64,000 bases of DNA. It comes from Nanobdellota archaeon (lineage in GTDB: Archaea > Nanobdellota > Nanobdellia > Parvarchaeales > Parvarchaeaceae). The position numbers and the translations under genes are program-made. The notes beneath the pieces are model-generated. The model had not been told where the DNA came from. It searched no databases and saw only the letters and a program-made list of their open reading frames with translations. This document shows, piece by piece, positions 49,357 through 63,594 of the stretch. Each line of letters starts with the position of its first letter. The stretch's first letter is position 1. The stretch is taken from assembly GCA_021802505.1 (NCBI GenBank), contig JAJZXE010000002.1:11770-75769 (forward strand). The letters run 5' to 3'.

Positions 49357-49875
49357 TCAAGGTTTACTCTGATTTGTAAACCTGCCGGAATATTTTGCTT
49401 TTCCTTTCAGTTCTTCCAGCACTATCTGGCAGATTTTTGTTTCAGGCCTTATGGCCAGCGCTATCGGTGACAGATTTGCCATTTCTAAGACTATCTTACC
49501 GGTCGTACCGGGCTGCATAAAACCACTGCTTACATGCGTCAGTAAACCCAGTCTGGCAAATCTTGACCTGCCGTCCACTCTTGCAGAGATATTCTGCGGC
49601 AACGAGATTTTTTCTATGGTTATTGCATGAACCAGCTCCCCTGGTTGAATTAAAAAACTTCCGCCTTTTTTAATCCTGACCTCCTGTGTCAGTTTCCGGT
49701 AATCTGTGGAATCATCGACAGTTACTACTTTGTTTACCTTTTTGAATATCCTGAAAACGTATCCTAACCTAAGATCTACAGACCCCGGGCCTATCTGATT
49801 CCTGTTTAAAGGCGAGATTTTCAGATCTCCGGAATCCAGAAGTTTAATGATTTCATCGTGTGATAATACTGACAT
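49357..49875 (-). CDS. dcd: dCTP deaminase
   Basis: PGSVDLRLG, GRSRFARLGL, LEMAN, ICQ. Confidence 0.93.
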   Translation of the reverse strand: MSVLSHDEIIKLLDSGDLKISPLNRNQIGPGSVDLRLGYVFRIFKKVNKVVTVDDSTDYRKLTQEVRIKKGGSFLIQPGELVHAITIEKISLPQNISARVDGRSRFARLGLLTHVSSGFMQPGTTGKIVLEMANLSPIALAIRPETKICQIVLEELKGKAKYSGRFTNQSKP

Positions 49876-49939
49876 ATTCTAGTAATCATTCTTTACAGTT
49901 AAAAACTTTATATTTTAATTCAAATAAAGAAGATAAAAA

Positions 49940-52900
49940 CTAGGAAACGCTGCTGAAAGTCACGGATGGCATCACTCCTGCTGGAGGATAGGCACGGGTG
50001 CGAACCCAATAGACATTTAGGTTGTAAGAAGTAGAAAACGTTGTTTGTGCAGGGTTAAGATAATAAGACACTGTTACATAAAGAGGCGTAGCAGGAACAT
50101 CGGTTGTTGTACTCCCCCAATTTGTATATCCATATTGAACTGATGTGGAACCGTTGTCAGGATACAATACTCCAAAAATATGATAATTACTATCGCTTGT
50201 TATTTGTGAAGTATCAAAATAGTTAGCAGCTGAAGTAGTCGTAGTTTCGGCTGTTATCGTAGAGTGGGCTTGTACATTTCCCGCCCAACCTACAGCGTTT
50301 TCGTTTTCACCATTGTCAGCGTGCCAAGCAGTATTATTTAAAGCAGTTAATGCGTCGGGCACTATTCTAAAATTAGTAGTGTCGAAAGAATTAGTATTGG
50401 CATAACTTTCCAATATTTGCGCCCCGCTTACAGTATAAGAAGCAGATGAGAGATAAACATAACTTCCTGCAGCTGCATTATAAGGAACCACTTCTGTAAG
50501 TCCATTATCAATGGTCAGTGTTCCGCCGCTATTACCGCTGTTCCATTTAGTCGTGTTAAGGCTTGTCCCTGCGAAGTTGTCATAGAAATTGAATACATTA
50601 GCCCCGTCATCATACTCACCGTAATTGGGAGAAAGTGTGGGGGCTTCTCCTGTGGTCTTGTTGTTGAAAAGATTAGTAGAATTGGAGGCAAATCCTATAT
50701 ATATTGTAATCGATGAAGAAGCAGGTATACTTCCGGTTTTGATCCAATAAAGGGCATTTTTGGAATAAGAGTAGTTCTCAAGCCATGATGGTATTAAAGT
50801 TCCATTGGGATAAAAGAATTCGATATTCTGGAAATTGGGAGCTGCATAACCTTTATACACTGAAGACGTCATATTTATCATCTGCTGGAACGGCTGAGGT
50901 GTAGCTGCAGACTGAGAATTGTTTATTGCGATTTTAGCATAATTTTCTACGGATGCTGGTATAACAGCCTGCCCAAAACTTATGGAAGGCATCACTCCGC
51001 TAGGTGGATAAGCGCGGACGCGAACCCAGTTTGCATGAATTATATTATTCGGGGAGCCCGGCCCGGGATTTCCAAGCGTCAAATAAAAAACAGGATTATT
51101 GTAGTTAGTTTCGGATGCAGTCATATTGTTATCGACGGAATAGGTGGTAGTTAGTATACTGGCGGTGATTGACGAGGTATTTTTTATGATGACTTGTGCT
51201 ATATAGGTTCCATTTGTACTCACGTTCTGTGCACCATTGAGGAGTGCCACCTTTCCATTATAATACCATCCACCTCTGGAATTTGCCCAAGCATTGACAT
51301 CAAATTGGTCACTGGTTGCACTTGGTGTTATGTAATTAGAACCGCCTATCATTACCATATTCGTAGAATTGATAATATCCCCCAGACTTTCAGCAATAAA
51401 AGGCGCACTGAATGTTTGATTGCTGTAAGTTATACCATCGTACGCAAAAGACCCTGCTGTGCCACCAGGTGTAATTGTAACTCCATTATTTACAGCGACA
51501 GTTACCCCACTTGGTCCGCTATTCCATCCGGCCTTTAATGTAGTCCCGGCAAAATTGTCATAGAAATTGAATACGTTGGCACCGTCATCATACTCTGCAT
51601 ATGTTGGAGATAGCTGAGGAGCCTCACCGGTAGTTTTGTTATTGAAAAGATCTGTTGAATTGTGAACCAGGCCGATTACTATGTTTGTTATGGTGGTGTT
51701 GGCTGGTATTCCATCTGGCAATTTAATCCAGAACAAAGCATACTTTGAAGTGTAATTCTCAAGCCATGAGTTTATCTTTTTATCACTGGTTTTGTTGTAA
51801 AACACCACATTCTGGAACTGGTGTCCACTGCTTAAGTTTATGTACTGCTTGTAATTTGAATAGGATAGGTTCACCAGCTCCTGGAATGGTGCTGGAGTGG
51901 CGGTTGACTGTACATTGGTTATATTTATCGGCAGGTAATAATCCAAAAGCGTAGATAAGCTAGGATTAATTACCCTCTTTATAGTTACAGAATTTGAGGT
52001 ATAATTTGCATTTCCACTGGTATTCAGTACAATCGTGTAGTTATTTGCATACTTTCCTAAGTTTATCGTCGTTGTCGTTGTTATTGTTTTATTAAGAACT
52101 CCGTTTATGTATAACGTTGCCGTTACCTGGCTGTTAATAGTAGATATTGCTGCAGTCACAGTAAGATTTGTTCCATTGTATGTGTAGTTTACACCCGGTT
52201 TTGAGGTCAAACTGAGAGAAGGTACCGCTTTGTTTATCGTCTCATAATAAGATATGTTGTTTATACTACTTGAATTTGATCCTCCAATAACTCTAATCTT
52301 GCCGATGGATGGACTGCTGGCATAAGTCGAAATATTCCTGGAAAATGACGTTAAAGACGTAACTGAGTTATTTATTATATCCCATAGTTTTACATAATTG
52401 TTATTGGATTCAACGGTAAAATTGCTTGTTTGACCGTAAATTGCAGTCACATTATTGTTTGAAAGTCCGTTTATAAACAGATTTATCGGATTTGTAACGA
52501 GATTGTTGAATTTTACAGATGGTATTATTCCGTCCGGAGGAGCAGTTGGAGAGTAATAACTTACTGCGTTGTTTGACCACAAAGCGGTATACGCTCCGCC
52601 TCCGTCCTCGTAATAATCCATTTCTATCCTAACGGTTCCTAAACTAGATTCTACCCCGCTGTAGGCTGTAAAAGGCTCTGTATGCCACTGGCTTACAAGA
52701 TTATTCGGATTTGAGGTTCCTCCTAACCAATAAGCGCCGTTTCCCTGTCCTGCCGTTGTAGAGTAACCCAGGGCTATTCCGTCATCGGAGCCGACGTAAA
52801 AAGTAGTTGCCGAATTGACCTCCGCCCATCCTATTGCTTTTATTATCCATGAATTGCCGGTGTTTGATACGGGCGGATTCGGATATGCCGCTCCGCCGCT

Positions 52901-55900
52901 GTATCCTTCCTGATAATTAATTACTACATTTGATTTGGTTGTTCCGTCTACATCCTGAGAGCTGCCCGATAAAGCGGTATAAAATGGTATGGTAGAAGAT
53001 ACCATCGAAGCACATGAACTTATGGTGACACCGTCGTTTAATGTGGCTGAATATACGTTATTCTGATAACTTCCGCTGTCACACGCCCCACCGGAATCAT
53101 AGTAGATCTGATACTGCAATCCGCTGTTCATCACATTACCGATATCATTGTACTGTCCGTAAGTCGATGACAACTGAGGTGCTTCACCCCTTGTTTTATT
53201 GTTGAAAAGATCTGTTGAATTAGAAGCAAAACCCACGGCTATGTCAAATAAAGTCGTATTTGCCTGTATACCGTTTGGCAGCTTAATCCAATAGATAGCA
53301 TAACCTGTGCCGCTGCTGATGTGATAGCTTTCCAGCCATGAATTTATTGGCTTGCCAGTTGTAGTATTAAAGAATTCAAGATTCTGGAGGGAGTGAGCAC
53401 CGCTTTGATTTATGTACTTACTGTTTGCCGAAGTTATGGTCAAATTTATCATCTGCTGGAATGGCTGTGCCGTAGAAATCGTCTCCGGATTCGTTATATT
53501 CAGAACCTGATACTTGTAGACTGAAACAGGTGTGGCTAGGGATTTCTTAGAAAATGATATAGCCAAGGAACCGTTTGATTCCATATATCCTTTGGTAATA
53601 TTAGGAATGTATACTGCCGTAGAAGTCGTTATATTATCCGGTAAAGAAAAGCTGTAGTTGCCTAGTAAATCCGTAAAATGGATAACATTAATATCGGAAG
53701 TATGCGTTTTTCCGTTGTATATAACTTTCCATGCGGTGTTAGAAGGCAGACCGGTTTCATTGAATGACGGAGTGTAATTCCAAAGCGATATGTTTGTGGA
53801 TACTCCCGCCTTAGTCATTCCCAGAGAATAACCTTTTGAAAATCCTGCTTTATAAGAGTAGATGCCTGATCCGGAAGAGAGCGAGGTTATTGAAATGTTT
53901 TTTGGAGTTATATTGCTTCTGTTTACTCCATTATAATCTACCCACCAGGTAATGTTATTTGGCAGGTTGTTCTCAATAAATTTATTTGTACAGTTCCACC
54001 CTATAAAGAAGGATATGGATCCGGCTTGAACATATTTAGACTGTGTTGAGCAGGATGAATTAGTTGACGCGGTAGCAGTGTAATTTCCGAATGGCGTATC
54101 GGGCACTGTTATTGTTCCGTTAGGTAAAATAAATGTTACTTTTGGCATAACCCCGTTGGGATACGAAATAGGCAGTGTTGGTGCCGTTAATATAAATCCA
54201 CCGGGCCCACAGCCACCGCCTCCATTTCCTCTTGAAGTGGCGAGTTTATACTCTCCGGGCGGCAAATAAATCGAGCCGTATGAGCTCAGACAGTATGGTG
54301 TATTAAAGAAGTGATTGTAGTAACCTACTCCGTTTGAAGCACCTGTTATACTTAATCCAGAATAACCTCCGTTACCTCCCGCCATATATATGTTAACATC
54401 TCCACCTCCCCATGAACAAATCATGTTTAGATTTCCGCCATATTCCATATTAAAGAAATTACCACATGAGGTGTAATTTTCACTTAGCTCTGCCGGAAGT
54501 TGAGAGCCGGTTGAAGGTTGAGGGTAAGGACCTAGATCTATAGATGTACTGTTACTAAGCTTAGCTAACACAACCGTTGAATTGGAAGCAAATCCTATGT
54601 AGATATTGGTGGATGAATTAGCGGGTATACTGCCGGGATTAAGCCAGTACACGGAGTATTTACTATAGATATAGTTCGCGAGCCAAGAGGGTATTATAGT
54701 GCCGTTCTGGTAGAAAAACTCAACGTTTTGGAAATTTGAAGCGGCCAGACCTGCGTAGATACTGTGGCTGAGATTTACAACCTGCTGTAAAGGAGAAACT
54801 GTCGAAACACCCTGTGAATTGTGTATCTTTATAACCCTGTAATATTTTATATACGCAGGTACCGCCCCTGGTATAGCAGAACTTACAGAACTTACATTCT
54901 TTCCGTCAAATGAAACAGACCATAATGAGTTTGGCGCTAAACCATTCTGAACAAACGACGTAGTGCAGATATCGGATAGTGAAAAATGAATGTTTATGTT
55001 GGTACCAGCGTTCTCTTCCGCTTGTGTAATATTAGGAGTATAAGTTGACGTACAGTTCAATGTTGAGGATACATTTGAAAGCACAGGAACTGATAAATTA
55101 TAACGTCCTGAAACTGTGCTGAACATTATAGAATTGGATGTCGCTGATTTATTTATTCCATTGAACAATGCGTACCAGTTATATCCTTGAGGAAGACCGG
55201 TTTCATTAAGATAAGTAGTAACGAGGGTTGTATTTATATCAATTGAAGGCATCACTCCTACTGGTGGGTAAGCACGTGTACGAACCCACCTAACATAAAT
55301 TGGATTGGTATATTCATTTGTTAAGGCTAAAAATATCGTTGAACTAAAAGCTGGAATATTAGTTGTTATTGTTTGTCCTGCGTTTGGTGCAGAGGAATAA
55401 GAATTAAGATAATAAATTATTCTAGATTCAGTAGCAGATATGGAATAAATGTTATATGTGTTAGTAGGATATGAACCTATTTTGTTTTGTATGCCGGCAG
55501 AAGAATATGCGTTTGTATACCAATTTCCATCCTTATAAACTTGTATCCCGAAAGCGGGGTTACCACCAAAATATGTACCCGGTACCGTATTCGTCATGCC
55601 CCAGCGAAATGTTGTAGATGCCGATGGGCTGTCTTCGTAAACATCTAAAATTATATTAGAATTCCACTGTATATTTGTATCTGCAATCCATGTTTCATGG
55701 CTTAATCCTCCCGTTCCTCCTCCAGTTAGTGATAGACTATTATTTACTGAAATACCGCTAAGAGAACCAGAGGTTTGATCACTACCGTAGCTATTCCATT
55801 TTGTAGTGTTCAAGCTCGTCCCTGCGAAATTGTCATAGAAGTTGAATACGTTGGCACCGTCATCATACTCTGCATATGTTGCTGATAATTGAGGAGCTTC

Positions 55901-58900
55901 GCCGGTAGTTTTGTTATTGAAGTTATTTGCGTACTGTAGCAATGTCCGGTTGAATATCATGTAGATAGTTATACCGCTTTTTGATGGAATACTCTTTATC
56001 TTAAGCCAATAAACAGTATTATTTGATCTGTTTGAATTCCCGGACTCAAGCCATGAAGGTATAACGCTACCGTTCTGATAAGTGAACATTATATTGGAAA
56101 GCCGGGAATTCTCATATCCGGAATACTTTGAAGAGTTAAAGCTAAGCATCTGCTGGAAAGGCTGAGAAGTCGAAATGTTCTGCGAGTTGTAAAAGGATAC
56201 CGGAAGAACAAACGGCTTTTCATAAGCCGATGTATCATTTGAAAATGCGACCGTTAGATTGCTGCCTGCCGGCAGATATGTCCTGCTTACGTTGGAAACA
56301 AAGCCGGAATTGTATTTAACTACAGGATACACAACAAGGGTGTAATTGCTGCTGTATGAAGTGATGAACTTTAAAGTGTTGTTGACAGACAATCCGTTTT
56401 TACCGCCAAATTCCGCTTCCCATTTATAACCCTGCGGAAGACCCGCTTCCTTGAAATAGCTGTAGCATATGCTTGAAAAGGTTATGTTTACTGATGAACC
56501 GGATGTAAAATTTTCTTTTGTAATCGAGGGCGTAAAAGTGCACTGACCCTGTTTTATGGTGTTTGTGGAGAATGTAAAAGTCCCGTATGTTGTATTAAAT
56601 GACAACACTGTAGTATTTGAGCTGTTTGACTGCGAATTATATTCCGCAGACCATGTTGTTTCCGAAGGCAATCCGGTCTCCCTGAAGGTGGTGATGCAGT
56701 ATGAATGACTGAAAGATACAGAAATGATGGAATCCGCGGAGATATTTCCGCTCTGCGGAGAAGGAGTATAGACGCAACCGTTTACCGTTTGATCCGGCAC
56801 GGTGAATGAATAGGTCCCTTTCGATGAATTTATTGCAATGGTGGAAGTGGTTGATGAATTTGATACGCCTGCAAAGGTGACATTCCATTTTGTAGAAGAA
56901 GGAAGACCGCTCTCCCTGAAGGTGGTGATGCAGTATTTCTCTGTGAACTTCAACTGCGTATAATTACCGGAAACCAGATAGCCGCTGGAGCTGTTTGAGT
57001 AATAGAAACAGTTGCTGTTGTTTACTGCGGGGACTAAAAATGAGTAATTTCCTGGCGGAACATTGAATAGGATAGTAGACTGGGAAGATGAATTGTCTAT
57101 GCCGTCGTATGTAACCTTCCATGTAGTTCCAGAAGGCAGACCTGTCTCTGTAAACCCTGTAAAACAGTTACTGGCAAATGTTATACTCTTGTTGGAACCT
57201 GCCAGTATACTGCCGGATGAAGGCGTGGGATCCAGATAGCAGTTAGCCGAGACCTGTATTGAAGACACTGTAAAGGAAAAATTACTGTAGATAGAGGAGA
57301 TAAGCAGTGATGAGGTGGAGGAGAAGTTAGTTATCCCGTCGTATGTAACCTTCCATGTAGTTCCAGAAGGCAGACCTGTCTCATTGAAATAGGTGTTACA
57401 TAGCGCGGAATAGCCTATTGTAATGGAGGTTCCGGCGGACAGGTGACCAGATAATGGTGAAGGCGTGAAAAGGCAGTTGCCGCTCTTTATCGTGTACGCG
57501 GTGAAGTTAAAGGTCCCGGGAGAAGTGACAAAGGAGATCAGATTACCGGTGCTGTCATTCTCGGTCTTGTTCGCACCGTTATATGACAGGGTAAAATTGA
57601 TGTTTTTTGGCAGTCCAGACTCCTTAAAGTAAGATGTACATCTTGTCTGATTAAATACAAGATATATATTCGAGCCGGCTGCAGCCGTTGAATTCGTAGT
57701 TACCGTGTAAAAACAGTTGTCTATGGTCAGGTTGCTTATAGAATATGCAAATTTACCCGGCGGCGTGATGAAAGAAATTTCGCTGCTATTGGAAGTTTCG
57801 TTTATCCCGTCATAAACAACGTTCCACTTCGAACTTTTAGGCAGGCCATTCTCTATGAAGTTGGTAGTGCAGCCGCCAGAATAATTTATTATCTTGGAAG
57901 AGCCGGCTGCCAAACCGCCCGAAGAAGGAGAAGGCTGGTAATAACATGTGGAATTCCCGACATAGGATGCGGAGAAGACGTACGTGCCGTTTAGCGATGG
58001 AACTTTTATCGAATTTGTATTAGAAGACGTGGCAATTCCATTGTAGGTTATACTCCAGGTCGTATTCAACGGCAAACCGGTTTCATTGAATGTAGTATAA
58101 CACTTTGCGGAAAAATGGATCTTCTGCAACGACCCCGTCACTGTACTGCCACTGCTTGGGGAACTATAATACGTACAACCGCCTATTTTTACGTTTGCAA
58201 CGGACAGCTTAAATATCCCTGCCGGAGTAACCACGGAAACATTCCGTGAAGAAGTAGACAATTGTATCCCGTCATAAGTAAGATTCCATTTCGTCCCAGA
58301 AGGAAGACCGCTCTCAATAAAAGTGGTGTTGCAGGTGTTTTCTGTAAAAGTTATGGCCTCGGAAGACCCTGCTTTCAGGGTGCCGGATGGCGGCGATGGG
58401 AGATAGCTGCAGCCGGAATATATGGAGGAGTATGAAGAGAAGGAATAACTGCTGTTAGAAGTCACAAAGGTTATGTTCTGATTTGATGACTTCTTTGTAA
58501 CGCCGTTATAGGTTATATTCCACAATGCACCTGAAGGAAGAGACTGCTGCATGAATGTAGTGTTGCATTCCAAAGTGTAGGAGATGGCTACGGAACTTCC
58601 TGCAGAAAGCGAACCCTTGGTAGTATCCGGCTGGTAATAGCAGCCGCTGCCGACGCTGACTATGGAAGGATAGTAGGTATGACTGCCGGGAGAAGCCAGT
58701 ATTATTATTTTGCTGCCTGATGAACTGTTTGTGATGCCGTTGAAGTCAACGCTCCATTTTGTAGACGAAGGAAGACCTGTCTCGTTGAAATAGGTGGCGC
58801 AGAAATTATTATAGACTATATTAACCGTACTGCCTATCTTCGCCAGTCCGCTGTTGCTTGTAAGATTAATGTTACAGCCGCTTACAGAGATATTTTTTGG

Positions 58901-61900
58901 AAGGATTAAATAACTGAAGGAGGAGGGGGAAAAGGAAGTATTGAAGCTTATCGAATTTGATGTTGATTTGCTGAAACTGCCGTTGTATGTAACGTTCCAC
59001 GGATAACTCTGCGGAAGATTGTTTTCCTTGAAAGTCGTAATGCAGTAATCCGGAGCAAACTCTATCGTCAAAGACGAGCCCGATCCTACAGTACCACGTG
59101 TCATATTCGGAACATAATTACAGCCGTTGGAAAAAACATTGTAGGATGAAAAGTTATATTGTCCGTTGAGAGCAGTGAACGTAAGTATATTTGATGATGA
59201 AGTTCCGTTCAAGCCATTATATTTTACTGTCCATAATGCACCGGAGGGAAGACCGCTCTCCCTGAATGTGGTAATACAGTCATCCGAGAACGTTATCTTT
59301 AGGTTCTGCCCGGCCGCTATTCCCCCGGAAGAAGGGGCCGGTACAAAAGAACATGAAGAGGTTATAGGTATGCCGGGGACGCTGAACGACCTTGACTCGT
59401 TCTGTGAAATCCATTCGACGTGCGATGAGTTCGTAGACAAATTATTGCCCTGATACACATAATTACCATTTACCAGATAGGGTTTCAGATCGAAGTACCA
59501 TTTCGTCCCAGGAAGGCCTTTTTCAGATATATTGGAATAGCACGTAGCCGAGAAGTGCAAGCCGATGGAACTGCCGGCCTTTACAACGGATGGATAAGAA
59601 GTGGAAAATATACAATTGCTTACATTCACTGCAGGCACGGCAAGAGAAAAATTGCCGGCGTTTGTAACGAAACTGGTCTCGTTTGTACCTGAAGAATTGG
59701 TATAATTGAAAGTGGCGTTCCAATCCTGGTTTTCTGGCAGACCCCTCTCCGTAAGATATGTTGTACATGTGGTAGGTGTGAAGGAAACATTTACGGACGA
59801 GCCGGAAGTTGTGTTTCTGCTTTTAGTCAGGGGGGCGAAATTGCAGTTATGCCCGTGTTCATTGTACAGTTTAAAGGAATAATTACCGGGAATCTGAAGT
59901 ATGCTCAGCTTATTGGAATTGGAGGAAACCGTTGCCCCATTGTATGTCACCGACCATAGAGTACCGGAATAAAGACCGTTTTCCACAAAAGTCGTTGTGC
60001 ATTCCTTTATGAAATTCAGGTTCACCGTAACTCCTGCGGTGTCATTTCCTGAAAGGGGCTGCGGATAATAATGACACGTACCCCCTGCCGGAACCTCTGC
60101 AACGCTGTAGGAATAATTGCCGTAAAGAGACGTAAAAGAAATAGAATTAGAGGAGGAACTTTTATTCTGACCGGCAAAGTATGCAGTCCAATCCATTGAA
60201 GAAGGAAGACCGCTCTCTTTAAAGGCAGTAATGCAGGAGCTACTGAAATTTTCCGATACATTTGCACCCGCCTGCACCGCTCCCGAACCGTTTTCCGGGG
60301 AGAAAACACAGTTTCCGATGGAAAGTTTCGGCACTGAAAAAGAATAGCTGCCTGGGACGGAGGTGAATTGTATTTTATTTGACTGCGAGTCTGTGGTACT
60401 GCCGTTTAAGGCGGCCTGCCATGACGCCCCTGCCGGCAGATCTTTTTCCGTAAAGATTGTATCGCATGACGTCAGACTGAAGGATACGTGCACCGGATGT
60501 CCAACCAGTATAGAACCGGAAGTCACATTCGGTTCATAGAAGCAGTTCTTATAATCCGCGGTAGATATCTGATAGTAATACTTTCCAGGCTGCATCAGGA
60601 ATGAGATATTCTGCGTAACAGAGTTTTTCTTTATCCCGTTGTATGTAACAGACCAGTTGGCGCCCTGCGGCAGACCTGGATCTATAAAAGCAGTGACGCA
60701 CTCATTCACGTACAATATCGACTCGTTCCCGCCGGCCGCTGCACTGCCTGATGACGGCGAAGGGACGTAATAACAGCCGCCGCCGGATAAGACCGACGAA
60801 GCATTGAAAGAATAGGAACCGTTTACAGTGTGGAAAAACATCGTATTTGAAAGTGTTGATCTGGTTTTGCCGTCATAAGTAACGGACCAGTTGTCATTGG
60901 AAGGAAGACCGCTTTCAAAGAATTCTGTGCTGCATGCGCCAGAGAAATGGATGTTCTGCAGTGCCCCCGCAGTTATGCTGCCGTTCGCCGGATAAGGTGT
61001 GTAAGTACAGTTGCCTATTATTATCGTGGAAACGTTATAGCTAAAAACCGTATTCGGATAGTAGGGAAATTCTATCGTAGAATTATACGAACCGTCTCTC
61101 GTCTGGTTGTCATACTCCACCTCCCATGAGATACCCTGCGGCAGACCGGATGACGCAAAATCGGTGTGACAGACCTTGGAAAAGGCAATCGTAGCCGTTG
61201 CACTGGCAGACAGATTACCAGATGAAGGCGCAGGGGAATAGATACAGCCGCCGCGCGTAGAATTGAAGACATTAAAGGAGAAATTTCCCGGAGCAGTACT
61301 GAAGGTTATAGAAGAAGACGCTGAATTTAATATTATACCGTCATAAGCGACGGACCACTCAAGTCCTGCCGGTAATCCTCTCTCATGAAAAGTAGATATA
61401 CATGCAGGGGTAAACACCACTGTGATTCTGGACCCTGATGACAGCGGGGATGATGCATTTGAAGAAGGATAGTATGTACAATTGTTTACCACGACATTAT
61501 TTACGGAGAATGGAAAACTGCCTAAACCAACGAAGAAGGAAATATTGTCAGGGGACTTATTATACAAGGAAGACGAATCGTAATTTACCTGCCATGTTTC
61601 GTTTACCGGCAATCCCTCCTCGTAAAATCCAGTAAGACAAGAAGAGGAAAAATTTATCGGGATTATGCTTCCGGGAGCCGCAGAGCCTGCTGCGGGGTCG
61701 GGAGTAAAAAGACAGTTACCAAGCGATACTTTGCTCACGGTAAAATTGGAAGTGAAGTTTGCCGGAGATGGTATAAAAGAGATACTGCCGGAAGCGGACG
61801 CATTATCCATGTTATCGTATGAAACGTTCCACTCAATACCGGTCGGCAGACCATTTTCCAGGAATACCACCTTATTCGTCTTAACAGTGCAGGGAGTTAT

Positions 61901-62605
61901 GAAAAATATCGTTTTGTTTGTGCCGGCTTGCAGCGAACCGCCCGCTGGGAACGGGCTGGACTTACAAGCGTGATCGGATACATTGCTTACACGAAATGTG
62001 AAAACTCCATAACTTCCGGTAAACTTTAAACTGTTGTTTACGGAATACTTTGTAACACCGCCGTAGGTAACGCTCCAATTCTCATCCGCAGGAAGATACT
62101 GCTCGTTAAAATAAGTAGTACACTCAGACTTGAAGAAAATTTCTACGGTATTACCTGCCCGGACAATGCCGCCGAACTCGCTCGGAATAAAAACGCAACC
62201 GTTCACAGATACATTATTTATCTGGAAACTTATTGATCTGCTGTCCGAGGTGACAAAGTCGGTATTCGTATTGGAGTAAAACTTATTTGAATCGTAGGAA
62301 ACATGCCATAGAATGCCAGTCGGCAGGCCTGACTCCTTAAAAGTAGCGCTGTAAACCGCAGGCGGCGGGATAGTCACGTTTGTCTTGTTTATGGTAAGGT
62401 TTGTTGTATTTATATGCGAGATTACCGGCCGTGAAAGCAGCTTTGTGATTGAAGCGCCAAGTATATTTGTAGATACTGCGAGGTAAAAAAGGATTACTAC
62501 AAGTATGATTAAAAGAATAAAAAAGGCCGTAAGATGCGGCTTAAAGCTCCTTTTTTCTTTATTACTGTGAACTAAACGTTTAGTGTTATTATTACTGTGA
62601 GTCAT
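49940..62605 (-). CDS. Giant (4221 aa) membrane-anchored surface protein/adhesin with ~30 thermopsin-type repeats and five DUF2341-like modules
   Basis: Uninterrupted ORF; N-terminal TM; F.E.GLP.G..W repeats; five copies of NSQ..T..PFQQ...SWLE...YW modules. Confidence 0.9.
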   Translation of the reverse strand: MTHSNNNTKRLVHSNKEKRSFKPHLTAFFILLIILVVILFYLAVSTNILGASITKLLSRPVISHINTTNLTINKTNVTIPPPAVYSATFKESGLPTGILWHVSYDSNKFYSNTNTDFVTSDSRSISFQINNVSVNGCVFIPSEFGGIVRAGNTVEIFFKSECTTYFNEQYLPADENWSVTYGGVTKYSVNNSLKFTGSYGVFTFRVSNVSDHACKSSPFPAGGSLQAGTNKTIFFITPCTVKTNKVVFLENGLPTGIEWNVSYDNMDNASASGSISFIPSPANFTSNFTVSKVSLGNCLFTPDPAAGSAAPGSIIPINFSSSCLTGFYEEGLPVNETWQVNYDSSSLYNKSPDNISFFVGLGSFPFSVNNVVVNNCTYYPSSNASSPLSSGSRITVVFTPACISTFHERGLPAGLEWSVAYDGIILNSASSSITFSTAPGNFSFNVFNSTRGGCIYSPAPSSGNLSASATATIAFSKVCHTDFASSGLPQGISWEVEYDNQTRDGSYNSTIEFPYYPNTVFSYNVSTIIIGNCTYTPYPANGSITAGALQNIHFSGACSTEFFESGLPSNDNWSVTYDGKTRSTLSNTMFFHTVNGSYSFNASSVLSGGGCYYVPSPSSGSAAAGGNESILYVNECVTAFIDPGLPQGANWSVTYNGIKKNSVTQNISFLMQPGKYYYQISTADYKNCFYEPNVTSGSILVGHPVHVSFSLTSCDTIFTEKDLPAGASWQAALNGSTTDSQSNKIQFTSVPGSYSFSVPKLSIGNCVFSPENGSGAVQAGANVSENFSSSCITAFKESGLPSSMDWTAYFAGQNKSSSSNSISFTSLYGNYSYSVAEVPAGGTCHYYPQPLSGNDTAGVTVNLNFIKECTTTFVENGLYSGTLWSVTYNGATVSSNSNKLSILQIPGNYSFKLYNEHGHNCNFAPLTKSRNTTSGSSVNVSFTPTTCTTYLTERGLPENQDWNATFNYTNSSGTNETSFVTNAGNFSLAVPAVNVSNCIFSTSYPSVVKAGSSIGLHFSATCYSNISEKGLPGTKWYFDLKPYLVNGNYVYQGNNLSTNSSHVEWISQNESRSFSVPGIPITSSCSFVPAPSSGGIAAGQNLKITFSDDCITTFRESGLPSGALWTVKYNGLNGTSSSNILTFTALNGQYNFSSYNVFSNGCNYVPNMTRGTVGSGSSLTIEFAPDYCITTFKENNLPQSYPWNVTYNGSFSKSTSNSISFNTSFSPSSFSYLILPKNISVSGCNINLTSNSGLAKIGSTVNIVYNNFCATYFNETGLPSSTKWSVDFNGITNSSSGSKIIILASPGSHTYYPSIVSVGSGCYYQPDTTKGSLSAGSSVAISYTLECNTTFMQQSLPSGALWNITYNGVTKKSSNQNITFVTSNSSYSFSSYSSIYSGCSYLPSPPSGTLKAGSSEAITFTENTCNTTFIESGLPSGTKWNLTYDGIQLSTSSRNVSVVTPAGIFKLSVANVKIGGCTYYSSPSSGSTVTGSLQKIHFSAKCYTTFNETGLPLNTTWSITYNGIATSSNTNSIKVPSLNGTYVFSASYVGNSTCYYQPSPSSGGLAAGSSKIINYSGGCTTNFIENGLPKSSKWNVVYDGINETSNSSEISFITPPGKFAYSISNLTIDNCFYTVTTNSTAAAGSNIYLVFNQTRCTSYFKESGLPKNINFTLSYNGANKTENDSTGNLISFVTSPGTFNFTAYTIKSGNCLFTPSPLSGHLSAGTSITIGYSALCNTYFNETGLPSGTTWKVTYDGITNFSSTSSLLISSIYSNFSFTVSSIQVSANCYLDPTPSSGSILAGSNKSITFASNCFTGFTETGLPSGTTWKVTYDGIDNSSSQSTILFNVPPGNYSFLVPAVNNSNCFYYSNSSSGYLVSGNYTQLKFTEKYCITTFRESGLPSSTKWNVTFAGVSNSSTTSTIAINSSKGTYSFTVPDQTVNGCVYTPSPQSGNISADSIISVSFSHSYCITTFRETGLPSETTWSAEYNSQSNSSNTTVLSFNTTYGTFTFSTNTIKQGQCTFTPSITKENFTSGSSVNITFSSICYSYFKEAGLPQGYKWEAEFGGKNGLSVNNTLKFITSYSSNYTLVVYPVVKYNSGFVSNVSRTYLPAGSNLTVAFSNDTSAYEKPFVLPVSFYNSQNISTSQPFQQMLSFNSSKYSGYENSRLSNIMFTYQNGSVIPSWLESGNSNRSNNTVYWLKIKSIPSKSGITIYMIFNRTLLQYANNFNNKTTGEAPQLSATYAEYDDGANVFNFYDNFAGTSLNTTKWNSYGSDQTSGSLSGISVNNSLSLTGGGTGGLSHETWIADTNIQWNSNIILDVYEDSPSASTTFRWGMTNTVPGTYFGGNPAFGIQVYKDGNWYTNAYSSAGIQNKIGSYPTNTYNIYSISATESRIIYYLNSYSSAPNAGQTITTNIPAFSSTIFLALTNEYTNPIYVRWVRTRAYPPVGVMPSIDINTTLVTTYLNETGLPQGYNWYALFNGINKSATSNSIMFSTVSGRYNLSVPVLSNVSSTLNCTSTYTPNITQAEENAGTNINIHFSLSDICTTSFVQNGLAPNSLWSVSFDGKNVSSVSSAIPGAVPAYIKYYRVIKIHNSQGVSTVSPLQQVVNLSHSIYAGLAASNFQNVEFFYQNGTIIPSWLANYIYSKYSVYWLNPGSIPANSSTNIYIGFASNSTVVLAKLSNSTSIDLGPYPQPSTGSQLPAELSENYTSCGNFFNMEYGGNLNMICSWGGGDVNIYMAGGNGGYSGLSITGASNGVGYYNHFFNTPYCLSSYGSIYLPPGEYKLATSRGNGGGGCGPGGFILTAPTLPISYPNGVMPKVTFILPNGTITVPDTPFGNYTATASTNSSCSTQSKYVQAGSISFFIGWNCTNKFIENNLPNNITWWVDYNGVNRSNITPKNISITSLSSGSGIYSYKAGFSKGYSLGMTKAGVSTNISLWNYTPSFNETGLPSNTAWKVIYNGKTHTSDINVIHFTDLLGNYSFSLPDNITTSTAVYIPNITKGYMESNGSLAISFSKKSLATPVSVYKYQVLNITNPETISTAQPFQQMINLTITSANSKYINQSGAHSLQNLEFFNTTTGKPINSWLESYHISSGTGYAIYWIKLPNGIQANTTLFDIAVGFASNSTDLFNNKTRGEAPQLSSTYGQYNDIGNVMNSGLQYQIYYDSGGACDSGSYQNNVYSATLNDGVTISSCASMVSSTIPFYTALSGSSQDVDGTTKSNVVINYQEGYSGGAAYPNPPVSNTGNSWIIKAIGWAEVNSATTFYVGSDDGIALGYSTTAGQGNGAYWLGGTSNPNNLVSQWHTEPFTAYSGVESSLGTVRIEMDYYEDGGGAYTALWSNNAVSYYSPTAPPDGIIPSVKFNNLVTNPINLFINGLSNNNVTAIYGQTSNFTVESNNNYVKLWDIINNSVTSLTSFSRNISTYASSPSIGKIRVIGGSNSSSINNISYYETINKAVPSLSLTSKPGVNYTYNGTNLTVTAAISTINSQVTATLYINGVLNKTITTTTTINLGKYANNYTIVLNTSGNANYTSNSVTIKRVINPSLSTLLDYYLPINITNVQSTATPAPFQELVNLSYSNYKQYINLSSGHQFQNVVFYNKTSDKKINSWLENYTSKYALFWIKLPDGIPANTTITNIVIGLVHNSTDLFNNKTTGEAPQLSPTYAEYDDGANVFNFYDNFAGTTLKAGWNSGPSGVTVAVNNGVTITPGGTAGSFAYDGITYSNQTFSAPFIAESLGDIINSTNMVMIGGSNYITPSATSDQFDVNAWANSRGGWYYNGKVALLNGAQNVSTNGTYIAQVIIKNTSSITASILTTTYSVDNNMTASETNYNNPVFYLTLGNPGPGSPNNIIHANWVRVRAYPPSGVMPSISFGQAVIPASVENYAKIAINNSQSAATPQPFQQMINMTSSVYKGYAAPNFQNIEFFYPNGTLIPSWLENYSYSKNALYWIKTGSIPASSSITIYIGFASNSTNLFNNKTTGEAPTLSPNYGEYDDGANVFNFYDNFAGTSLNTTKWNSGNSGGTLTIDNGLTEVVPYNAAAGSYVYLSSASYTVSGAQILESYANTNSFDTTNFRIVPDALTALNNTAWHADNGENENAVGWAGNVQAHSTITAETTTTSAANYFDTSQITSDSNYHIFGVLYPDNGSTSVQYGYTNWGSTTTDVPATPLYVTVSYYLNPAQTTFSTSYNLNVYWVRTRAYPPAGVMPSVTFSSVS
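56240..62345 (-). repeat. 26 tandem ~78-aa (~234 nt) repeats forming the stalk
   Basis: Counted 26 consecutive F.E.GLP...W motifs, most units with two Cys; exact 47-nt duplicate at 57102-57148 and 57336-57382. Confidence 0.85.
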
Positions 62606-62835
62606 ATTCCGTCACACTACTTAAAAAGTAAAGAATTTGACATATATATGGTTTATATGGTGCCGGCGTATAAAAATATTTGATTTTATACAGGAATATC
62701 TGTCCATTACTTTTGAAACAATCTAAAATAACCGGGTTATCTTATTCTGCCTGAATCCATAAAAATACAAAATAATAGATTTTAGACAAAACACAAGCAG
62801 TAGTTAATATTTTATGAAGTACAATATCTAATTAT

Positions 62836-63594
62836 ATGAGAATACTGTCGTGGAACGTGAACGGGTTACGAAGCGTTGCGAGAAAGGGAGCTATACAGAG
62901 CATTCTAGACCCTAAATTGTATGCTGCGGTTCTATTGCAGGAAATAAAGGCCGAAAAGATAGACAATGAACTGGAAAAGAAAGGATATACTGCATATTTA
63001 ATGCCCTCTAAGGATAAAAAAGGCTACAGCGGAGTGGCGACACTGTGCAGAGACAAACCCATAAAAGTAATATACGGTATAGACAATGAAAAATTTGATA
63101 AGGAAGGCAGAGTGATAACACTGGAGTTCAGGGATTATTTCCTGATAAACAGTTACTTTCCCAATTCAAGAAGGGATTTGAGCAGGTTAAGTTATAAAAT
63201 TGAATTTAACCGGCGGATTCTTGAATTTATGGAAAAACTAAGAAAAATCAAGCCAATTATAATAGGGGGAGATTTCAACGTCGCGCACACTGCCTTGGAT
63301 ATAGCAAGACCGAGGGAAAACGAGGGAAACGCCGGTTTTACCGGAGAGGAAAGAGGATTTGTAGATTTGATGATTGAAAAAGGGTATGTTGACACGTTCA
63401 GGATGTTCAATAAAGACAAAGGAAATTATACATGGTGGACTTACCTGTACAAAAGTGCGAGAGAAAACAACATCGGCTGGAGGATAGATTATTTTTTTGT
63501 ATCGAACGAACTGAAAAAAAGAGTCAGATCCGCGGGAATACTGAAAAATCAATTAGGCTCCGACCATGTGCCGGTTTATGTGGAAATCGATTAG
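62836..63594 (+). CDS. xth: Exodeoxyribonuclease III / AP endonuclease
   Basis: SWNVNGLR, LQEIK, GDFNVAH, GWRIDY, SDHVP. Confidence 0.96.
   Translation: MRILSWNVNGLRSVARKGAIQSILDPKLYAAVLLQEIKAEKIDNELEKKGYTAYLMPSKDKKGYSGVATLCRDKPIKVIYGIDNEKFDKEGRVITLEFRDYFLINSYFPNSRRDLSRLSYKIEFNRRILEFMEKLRKIKPIIIGGDFNVAHTALDIARPRENEGNAGFTGEERGFVDLMIEKGYVDTFRMFNKDKGNYTWWTYLYKSARENNIGWRIDYFFVSNELKKRVRSAGILKNQLGSDHVPVYVEID

Follow-up and report, generated by a model that had tools for sequence, protein, structure and literature searches.

Diversity-generating retroelements diversify lectin-like surface domains, also in DPANN archaea. Exchange of whole blocks is described in other settings: in the gp38 adhesins of T4-superfamily phages, the short hypervariable segments that carry specificity lie between conserved motifs, all within one domain of the phage protein, and are exchanged by recombination between those motifs (PMC3157838, in the portion available), and in Anaplasma msp2/p44 a variable region is replaced via conserved 5′ and 3′ flanks, with one expression site and ∼100 silent pseudogene donors (PMC11946796, from the accessible part). 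Proteins with a DUF2341 domain (arCOG03508) are predicted type IV pilus adhesins of archaea, for which the available text reports no exchangeable head (PMC4858521), and DUF2341 was also noted in large Patescibacteria proteins in the part we consulted of PMC11809585. Here we examined a 64,000-nucleotide stretch (the window) of contig JAJZXE010000002.1 from a Nanobdellota archaeon of the Parvarchaeaceae, whose 763-kb genome, G000, is 83.9% complete. The organism, an acid-mine archaeon, is likely a Parvarchaeum, since the named records best matching the DUF2341 module are mostly Parvarchaeota, Parvarchaeum or Nanoarchaeota bins. The window contains a giant surface-protein gene (49940..62605, minus strand; 4,221 amino acids, 190 N-glycosylation sequons, an N-terminal hydrophobic segment) with five DUF2341 modules, each consisting of a conserved frame around a variable head. 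We found that heads are replaced between alleles, paralogues and species, and we are very confident that they are exchanged as units. The literature listings we searched, with subscription journals largely outside them, contained no report of head exchange in DUF2341 modules, although rudivirus gene trees in the supplements of PMC5454432 may bear on it; PMC8784108 contained none of the terms of interest save one unrelated use of the word recombination.

The giant protein resembles the arCOG03508 adhesins in carrying DUF2341 in a large surface protein, and many of its paralogues start like pilins; it differs in having five modules on a 26-repeat stalk, at a non-pilus locus and without a pilin-like start. 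By analogy, head exchange appears to work like gp38 and msp2/p44 swapping while belonging to neither system. Compared with gp38, to which we claim no homology, a whole domain of ∼200 amino acids, sometimes of another fold, moves among cellular genes, species and viruses, and compared with msp2/p44 there are ∼15 sockets in intact genes, with no silent donors seen in the incomplete G000. The difference from diversity-generating retroelements lies in block replacement, the swapped tracts being near-identical or unalignable, instead of adenine-specific point change. No reverse transcriptase (PF00078) was matched in the 83.9% of G000 that is represented, the control matching in 3 of 14, in agreement with a first-pass annotation of the sequence that had proposed diversification without this enzyme.

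The five modules occupy the last third of the open reading frame and have PFQQ/SWLE/YW.K blocks at amino acids 2149, 2605, 3048, 3573 and 3905. The first-pass annotation had described a shared opening block and closing motif, which we recovered in all five, the strict closing pattern P..G[VI][MI]P in four of them (module 2 has YPNGVMP) and WVR.RAYPP in three; its insert coordinates were right within ∼30 nt. All modules lie on the minus strand: module 1 (55238..56215) has a predicted concanavalin A (ConA)-like head, module 2 (54128..54847) a Cys/Gly-rich head with relatives in the giants of G021 and G022 and, elsewhere, as a free domain, module 3 (52511..53518) a weakly supported PA14-like head from a family of 11 in the genus, module 4 (50975..51943) a beta-rich head distantly homologous to heads 1 and 5, and module 5 (49943..50947) a further beta-rich head. 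Our genus survey covered 260 loci in 33 genus genomes, a subset of the matches listed, and anchored 215 modules, with 15 anchored in G000; the 163 closed heads shorter than 300 amino acids formed 91 clusters at 45% identity, and head 4 had no close relative among these 163.

Comparison of frames with heads provides evidence of exchange across the genus. Frames at least 85% alike formed 22 pairs, 15 with different heads (45–52% identity, which is the floor of the alignment used), 6 with the same head and 1 with the same family at low identity. Conversely, 12 pairs of heads were at least 85% alike among 136 full-frame modules, and half of these (6/12) sat in frames only 53–58% alike; the G001/G012 pair, identical throughout, is uninformative yet counted in both the 22 and the 12. 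Pair identities were bimodal, at 87–100% or ∼50%, and not graded. Metagenome contigs from JGI behaved similarly, 33 of 41 frame-alike pairs having unlike heads (46–54%), while an exact 26-nt flank pattern had no matches there. In G012, G047 and G048, one orthologous gene carried a different head in each genome, with the sequence on either side 78–93% alike, and the giants of G012 and G048 were ∼92% alike along the stalk and modules 1–2, ∼85% in module 3 and 0.3–0.5 over heads 4 and 5. Six head families placed on a tree of 63 frames, built from 101 columns and with some long branches, required 20 changes, where 5 would be the minimum and shuffled labels averaged 22.9 (9 of 200 shuffles were as low). 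No family was monophyletic in any of 200 bootstrap trees, and one orthologous frame clade with short branches carried five head families, including the PA14-like one. Invariant inserts with trees congruent to their flanks, named by the first-pass annotation as the outcome that would tell against exchange, were thus not what we observed.

It could be argued that the domains were shuffled long ago and then descended vertically with fast point divergence, the flanks remaining alike through protein constraint. Such a history would fit the homology of heads 1, 4 and 5, the 6 of 22 frame-alike pairs that keep the same head, and flank motifs that correspond to structural strands, but it is largely refuted by the bimodal identities, by heads 99–100% identical in frames 53–57% alike and by the short-branched clade with five head families, and we regard it as scarcely credible.

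For head 1 the exchange can be followed at the DNA level. When the DNA of this region was searched against the 32 other genomes, a single match exceeded 90%, the one in G013:C35 (98% over 659 bp; window 55245–55903), which comprises head 1 and its inner flanks inside a 513-amino-acid pilin-like gene. The exchanged tract (55262..55903, minus strand) starts at the GEAP codon, stops 15 nt beyond the closing motif and is 99.1% identical along its 642 bp, whereas the frames around it are only 53–57% alike and G013 and G000 are 72% alike at the window's own locus. The syntenic orthologue of this pilin-like gene in G000 (C8) has a different head. A Candidatus Parvarchaeum acidiphilum record (L267) contains the same G013:C35 stretch and was counted once with it. 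Three other tracts with the same kind of ends were found in G041 (97.3%, with a core at 100%; ends −15/+30 nt), G048 (98.4%; −27/+35 nt) and G002/G045 (94.1%; 0/+37 nt). Around the pilin-like gene, L031:4383-10850 (G013:C35) and G000:C8 share a 6.5-kb island that is 96–100% identical, the two species being otherwise 70–80% alike; it contains two related 430-amino-acid genes and the pilin-like module gene, upstream of which a (CT)n run varies in length between the two. Because the pilin domain, part of the frame and the head differ within an island otherwise shared at this level, these changes are likely recent. Replacement also affects the pilin-like domain and the frame's first half at L031:7157-7700 versus G000:C8:35140-35700, where the signal peptide in front of them is conserved; these genes thus have several exchangeable blocks. 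In G000 itself, two near-duplicate module genes (C15:11835-13430 and C27:32391-34061) are 92% alike over 1.6 kb with mosaic differences.

Parts of the stretch were present in 20 metagenome runs, six of which we compared. In X10, X11 and X12, all from study P4, the assembly forms a bubble with two alleles of head 1 at the locus. One contig carries the head 1 allele (55226–55835 in X10 and X11); the alternate contig shares the 30 locus-specific bases 55226–55255, is less than 90% alike over 55256..55794 and rejoins at 55795. Depths of the two branches were 21.1/26 (X10), 6.7/7.37 with a flank of 14.2 (X11) and 9.41/9.26 (X12). The first-pass annotation had predicted that coverage would drop over the inserts; summed contig depth is not a coverage test and we judged the prediction solely from the bubble, which spans head 1 in three runs. 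Joints at head 5, with sides of 21–39 letters, were not counted, paralogues or other organisms being possible sources. In X10, seven clustered differences at 50624–50750 in the frame of module 5 are possibly a short conversion tract.

Related heads extend beyond the genus, into Micrarchaeota, including the complete A_DKE chromosome, and into archaeal viruses (28 loci). The rudivirus carrier is ORF564 (SIRV2 CAC87314), which adjoins ORF1070 and has homologues in SIRV1/3/4/9/11, SBRV1 and SMV1/2. Its module is homologous to ours and has the same flank motifs, with the head replaced between isolates, but it is a single module on a viral N-terminal domain. Eight SIRV-like frames were 71–88% alike and their heads 18–35%, except one pair at 68%; SIRV4 (L340) and SIRV11 (L347) were 91–93% alike on both sides of a head that did not align. 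The diversified rudivirus capsid protein is SIRV1 gp30 (PMC9319562), which was not matched to ORF564. The SIRV4 module is 55% identical to module 5 over 95% of its length (E 1e-93), and head 5 is 59% identical to the SIRV4 head, 63% to that of virus contig L341 and 64% to that of Micrarchaeum A_DKE; symbiont–virus identities of 59–63% at the protein level indicate common descent of the heads, not recent transfer. Non-rudivirus viral contigs with the module (L354, L341, L363, L364, L339, L362) were SMV2-like and others. Between L341 and SIRV4 the heads are 86% identical and the frames only 46% alike, which likely reflects a swap between virus groups.

Assembly or binning chimeras at repeated flanks could mimic swaps, and there is some reason to consider them: most records are metagenome assemblies, many modules stand at contig ends, G013:C35 is a mosaic of 99–100% and 70–80% identity to G000:C8, and the core of the G041 pair is 100% identical. 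In G013:C35, however, the two parent types have only a few identical bases in common at the 5′ junction, far below an assembly word, and there are several differences between the tract and head 1. As for the bubble, 30 locus-specific bases anchor it and its depths sum in X11, and SIRV4 and SIRV11 are plaque-purified isolates according to the part of PMC5454432 available to us. We consider it very improbable that such artefacts explain the exchange.

What moves can be described from sequence profiles and predicted structures. The whole giant protein scored 98.7 bits against Pfam DUF2341 (PF10102; curated cut-off 23.4); modules 1, 4 and 5 pass the cut-off, modules 2 and 3 score below it, and 105 of 113 modules match at E 0.05. 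Pfam scans of the isolated heads gave no family for any, Cleaved_Adhesin matched weakly in 4 of 113 modules only, and a sequence search of the PDB with the 113-row module profile returned no match. An AlphaFold2 model of module 1 from the 113-row alignment (predicted local distance difference test score, pLDDT, 75.4; predicted template-modelling score 0.75) has a small beta domain (residues 2–88), a poorly predicted linker (94–118), a larger beta domain and a final strand (324–327), which may pack back onto the frame. Residues 122–317 match ConA-like jelly rolls (Foldseek E 2e-8; Z up to 17.8), among them glycoside hydrolase family 16 (GH16) enzymes, a sialidase lectin domain, Emp47p and ERGIC-53; for 5mqs, 3i4i, 6t2o, Emp47p and ERGIC-53, Z was 15–17.8 with root-mean-square deviation ∼3 Å over 170–190 residues. 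Head 1 is therefore predicted to be a ConA-like jelly roll, in which the conserved VFNFYDNF and WVR.RAYP motifs would be part of the head, as its first and last strands. Sequence identity to these folds is 10–18%, and the GH16 catalytic motif, ExDxE/ExDxxE, is absent from all 150 heads that are neither PA14-like nor Cys/Gly-rich. The fold search of module 1 also matched the TTV1 protein TPX, SPV2 structural proteins and a DUF2341 protein of the giant virus CroV, and whole-module fold matches included SBRV1, SEV1 and CroV proteins.

The first-pass annotation had taken all inserts to be mutually dissimilar, which stands for the PA14-like and Cys/Gly heads (at most 7 bits on leave-one-family-out hidden Markov models, HMMs; unrelated to the others), whereas heads 1, 4 and 5 are distant homologues at ∼24% mutual identity (24–55 bits, where shuffled sequences reached at most −3 to 8). 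Profile–profile comparison of the three gave probabilities of only 8–75%, so the case for their homology rests on the leave-one-out HMMs and on shuffled pairwise scores, where 0, 5 and 0 of 300 shuffles scored as high. By homology, heads 4 and 5 likely share the ConA-like fold of head 1. The PA14-like reading of head 3 retains a motif, its DD being kept in 8 of 8 cases, and a weak profile match (E 0.014) to RsgI3 structure 6qe7, which we take to be a PA14 domain; no Pfam match accompanies it, and the identity is weakly supported. An ESM Atlas search at 0.9 found no match for the Cys/Gly head, a relative of which forms a free C-terminal domain, outside any frame, in a 1,395-amino-acid paralogue (G000:C22:33877-38061). 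Head 5 fell into unnamed, mostly viral ESM Atlas clusters at 0.93 with few common features. The frame also has a second insertion point, right after SWLESG, holding a ∼210-amino-acid domain that reads as LamG-like (G044:C10:52391-53398, G019:C1:145152-146156 and G018:C20:24348-25367; L038, L039, L184/L197), and this insertion accounts for the split profile matches of many genus modules.

The ends of exchanged tracts bear on the mechanism. They cluster in the GEAP..FYDNF and WVR..YPP.G.MP blocks, varying by tens of bases: across the four cases from −27 to 0 nt at GEAP and from +15 to +37 nt past the closing motif. In module 1 these blocks define a 5′ crossover zone (GEAPQLS..YAEYDDGANVFNFYDNFAGT; 55814..55903, minus strand), covering the linker and first head strand, and a 3′ zone (WVRTRAYPP.GVMPS; 55245..55294, minus strand), covering the last head strand and closing motif. 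If the blocks are the first and last strands of the head, as predicted, a swap would move one complete domain in frame. An exact 40-nt match between the 5′ flanks of modules 1 (55842..55881) and 4 (51567..51606), pointed out in the first-pass annotation, is real; since a longer exact repeat of 47 nt occurs in the stalk, exact repeats are not limited to flanks. Among pairs with different heads from within one genome, 6 of 345 had exact runs of at least 30 nt in the GEAP block, versus 3 of 2,106 sampled between-genome pairs; for runs of at least 40 nt the counts were 3 and none. Long exact runs within genomes thus exceed chance. Reciprocal tracts of frame alone also exist (97.6% over 331 bp, modules 2 and 3 of G012). 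With frames and pilin domains exchanged too, the head is the commonest swapped unit and not the sole one.

We think it highly probable that exchange is homology-driven and not site-specific. On the simplest reading it would proceed by gene conversion or allelic replacement anchored in the linker and edge strands, likely through homologous recombination of the RadA type in the conserved stretches that border the head; a RadA-like gene is present in G000. The donor modules may belong to other intact genes of the same cell or may arrive on DNA from relatives, from further DPANN lineages or from viruses, and selection for new binding specificities may keep the head pool diverse. Of the donor cassettes anticipated by the first-pass annotation, those that we found were modules of other intact genes; silent cassettes were not seen in G000. 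A dedicated site-specific or programmed system, either a recombinase as in shufflons or silent donors that supply a single expression site, would fit the several tracts that begin at or near the GEAP codon (0, 0, −15 and −27 nt) and end less than 40 nt from the closing motif. Yet the positions of tract ends are scattered, those of frame-only tracts falling +16 to +87 nt past GEAP, pilin domains are replaced as well, all G000 modules lie within open frames (nine, two of them cut by contig ends) and an internal stop occurred in one genus match only among the matches listed. On this evidence from tract ends and reading frames, we hold a programmed system to be quite unlikely.

Base composition was considered as a marker of foreign heads. 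The insert and stalk counts of the first-pass annotation (18/60, 18/60 and 31/60 GC) were correct, and low GC holds for heads 1 and 5, whose GC at third codon positions (GC3) is 0.24 and 0.26 against a genome first percentile of 0.29, but not for head 3 (GC 0.47, GC3 0.42). Head GC3 was below frame GC3 in 113 of 136 modules, amino-acid make-up being uncontrolled in this comparison. As a general marker of foreign heads GC is true on average but fails for head 3, and we did not adopt it.

Several observations nevertheless weigh against homology-driven exchange of glycan-binding heads, or limit it. Runs X13 and X1 have no bubble at head 1, and X9 and X14 likewise list no such joint; the listed contigs cover heads 2, 3 and 4 near-identically in four runs and most of head 5 in X10. 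Together with the single match above 90%, this indicates that fast swapping does not extend to every socket. Being known only as less than 90% alike, the other head 1 allele could belong to the same head family and have diverged. Mean synonymous identity in the GEAP block is 0.477 within genomes, only slightly above 0.436 between them. The pairs compared are non-independent, through kinship and shared events, and most genomes are metagenome bins. The Foldseek check suggested by the first-pass annotation succeeded for head 1, whereas the model of module 3 is poor (pLDDT 47.9), its best 6qe7 row reaching E 0.0086 with nothing at E 0.001. Finally, a ConA-like fold as modelled is no proof of sugar binding.

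With these points in mind, we favour with good confidence an explanation in which DUF2341 frames act as sockets whose heads are replaced unit-wise, likely by RadA-type recombination, are predicted to bind glycans and set host attachment. A surface location, a long glycosylatable stalk, ConA-like heads lacking catalytic residues, pilin-like paralogues and viral homologues suggest an attachment role. Glycan binding by the heads is somewhat better than an even prospect, and the host cell surface as their target we would place in even balance. Parvarchaeales are host-dependent, as stated in the accessible portion of PMC10134863. The heads may instead have been exchanged under selection for virus escape, biofilm or matrix binding, or self/non-self adhesion in place of host recognition. 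Records labelled Bathyarchaeia, Marsarchaeota or Thermoplasmatales, groups not known to be ectosymbionts, also contain the module, and the giant gene is absent from the site in five relatives (G011, G023, G041, G044 and G047) and thus dispensable there. On the other side, the module was present in 24 of 24 genus genomes of the first draw versus 3 of 16 from other families, weakly. Close heads occur in the rudivirus protein encoded beside ORF1070, and viruses have reason to bind cells; in Nanoarchaeota, surface proteins diversify fastest and rank with pilus genes as the most diversified (PMC6142677, in the sections available). Selection of these other kinds is, in our view, unlikely to be the cause.

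The remainder of the locus is as follows. A hydrophobic segment at about amino acids 26–46 (62468..62530, minus strand), read from the sequence, is likely a membrane anchor or signal peptide. The stalk (56231..62353, minus strand) consists of 26 repeats of ∼78 amino acids (F.E.GLP....W.V, two Cys each), and its 47-nt exact repeat, in adjacent stalk repeats at 57102–57148 and 57336–57382, suggests recent conversion there. The setting is not a type IV pilus locus, the neighbours being exonuclease III, dCTP deaminase and endonuclease III genes. A dCTP deaminase gene (49357..49875, minus strand) downstream and an Exonuclease III-like gene (62836..63594, plus strand) upstream served as synteny markers. 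Between them the giant gene is found in G002, G012, G022 and G048, is split across two contigs in G003 and is partial in G001; G013 has a 454-amino-acid pilin-like module gene at this site, and G021 and G041 carry giants at other loci. The whole gene is thus a present/absent unit at 49876–62835 among relatives (L033-L036, L045, L048). Head order varies among giants, head family 6 occupying slot 1 in G000, slot 4 in G012 and slot 3 in G022, and only the G022 giant has two head families in common with that of G000. Many other module carriers are pilin-like genes of ∼500 amino acids that start SQSALEYM..GWAILII, which we take to be a pilin-like signal.

Few molecular handles exist on the means by which DPANN ectosymbionts recognise their hosts and switch between them. 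We tentatively raise the possibility, itself rather doubtful, that DUF2341 is a universal recombination socket through which two DPANN phyla and Sulfolobales viruses share a pool of whole receptor-binding domains of several folds, a swap retargeting its bearer to a new host glycan; acidophilic DPANN archaea might then owe their host range mainly to this mechanism, without reverse transcriptase or silent donors. What the present analysis offers is a defined unit, a head of ∼200 amino acids between two fixed motifs, together with direct evidence that it is exchanged and, for one genus, at least 91 clusters of heads. Cultured, genetically tractable systems with related heads (SIRV4 and SIRV11 with Sulfolobus islandicus; Micrarchaeum A_DKE with its host) make the predictions on binding and host range testable. 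One exchangeable domain family would thereby link symbiont attachment and virus adsorption.

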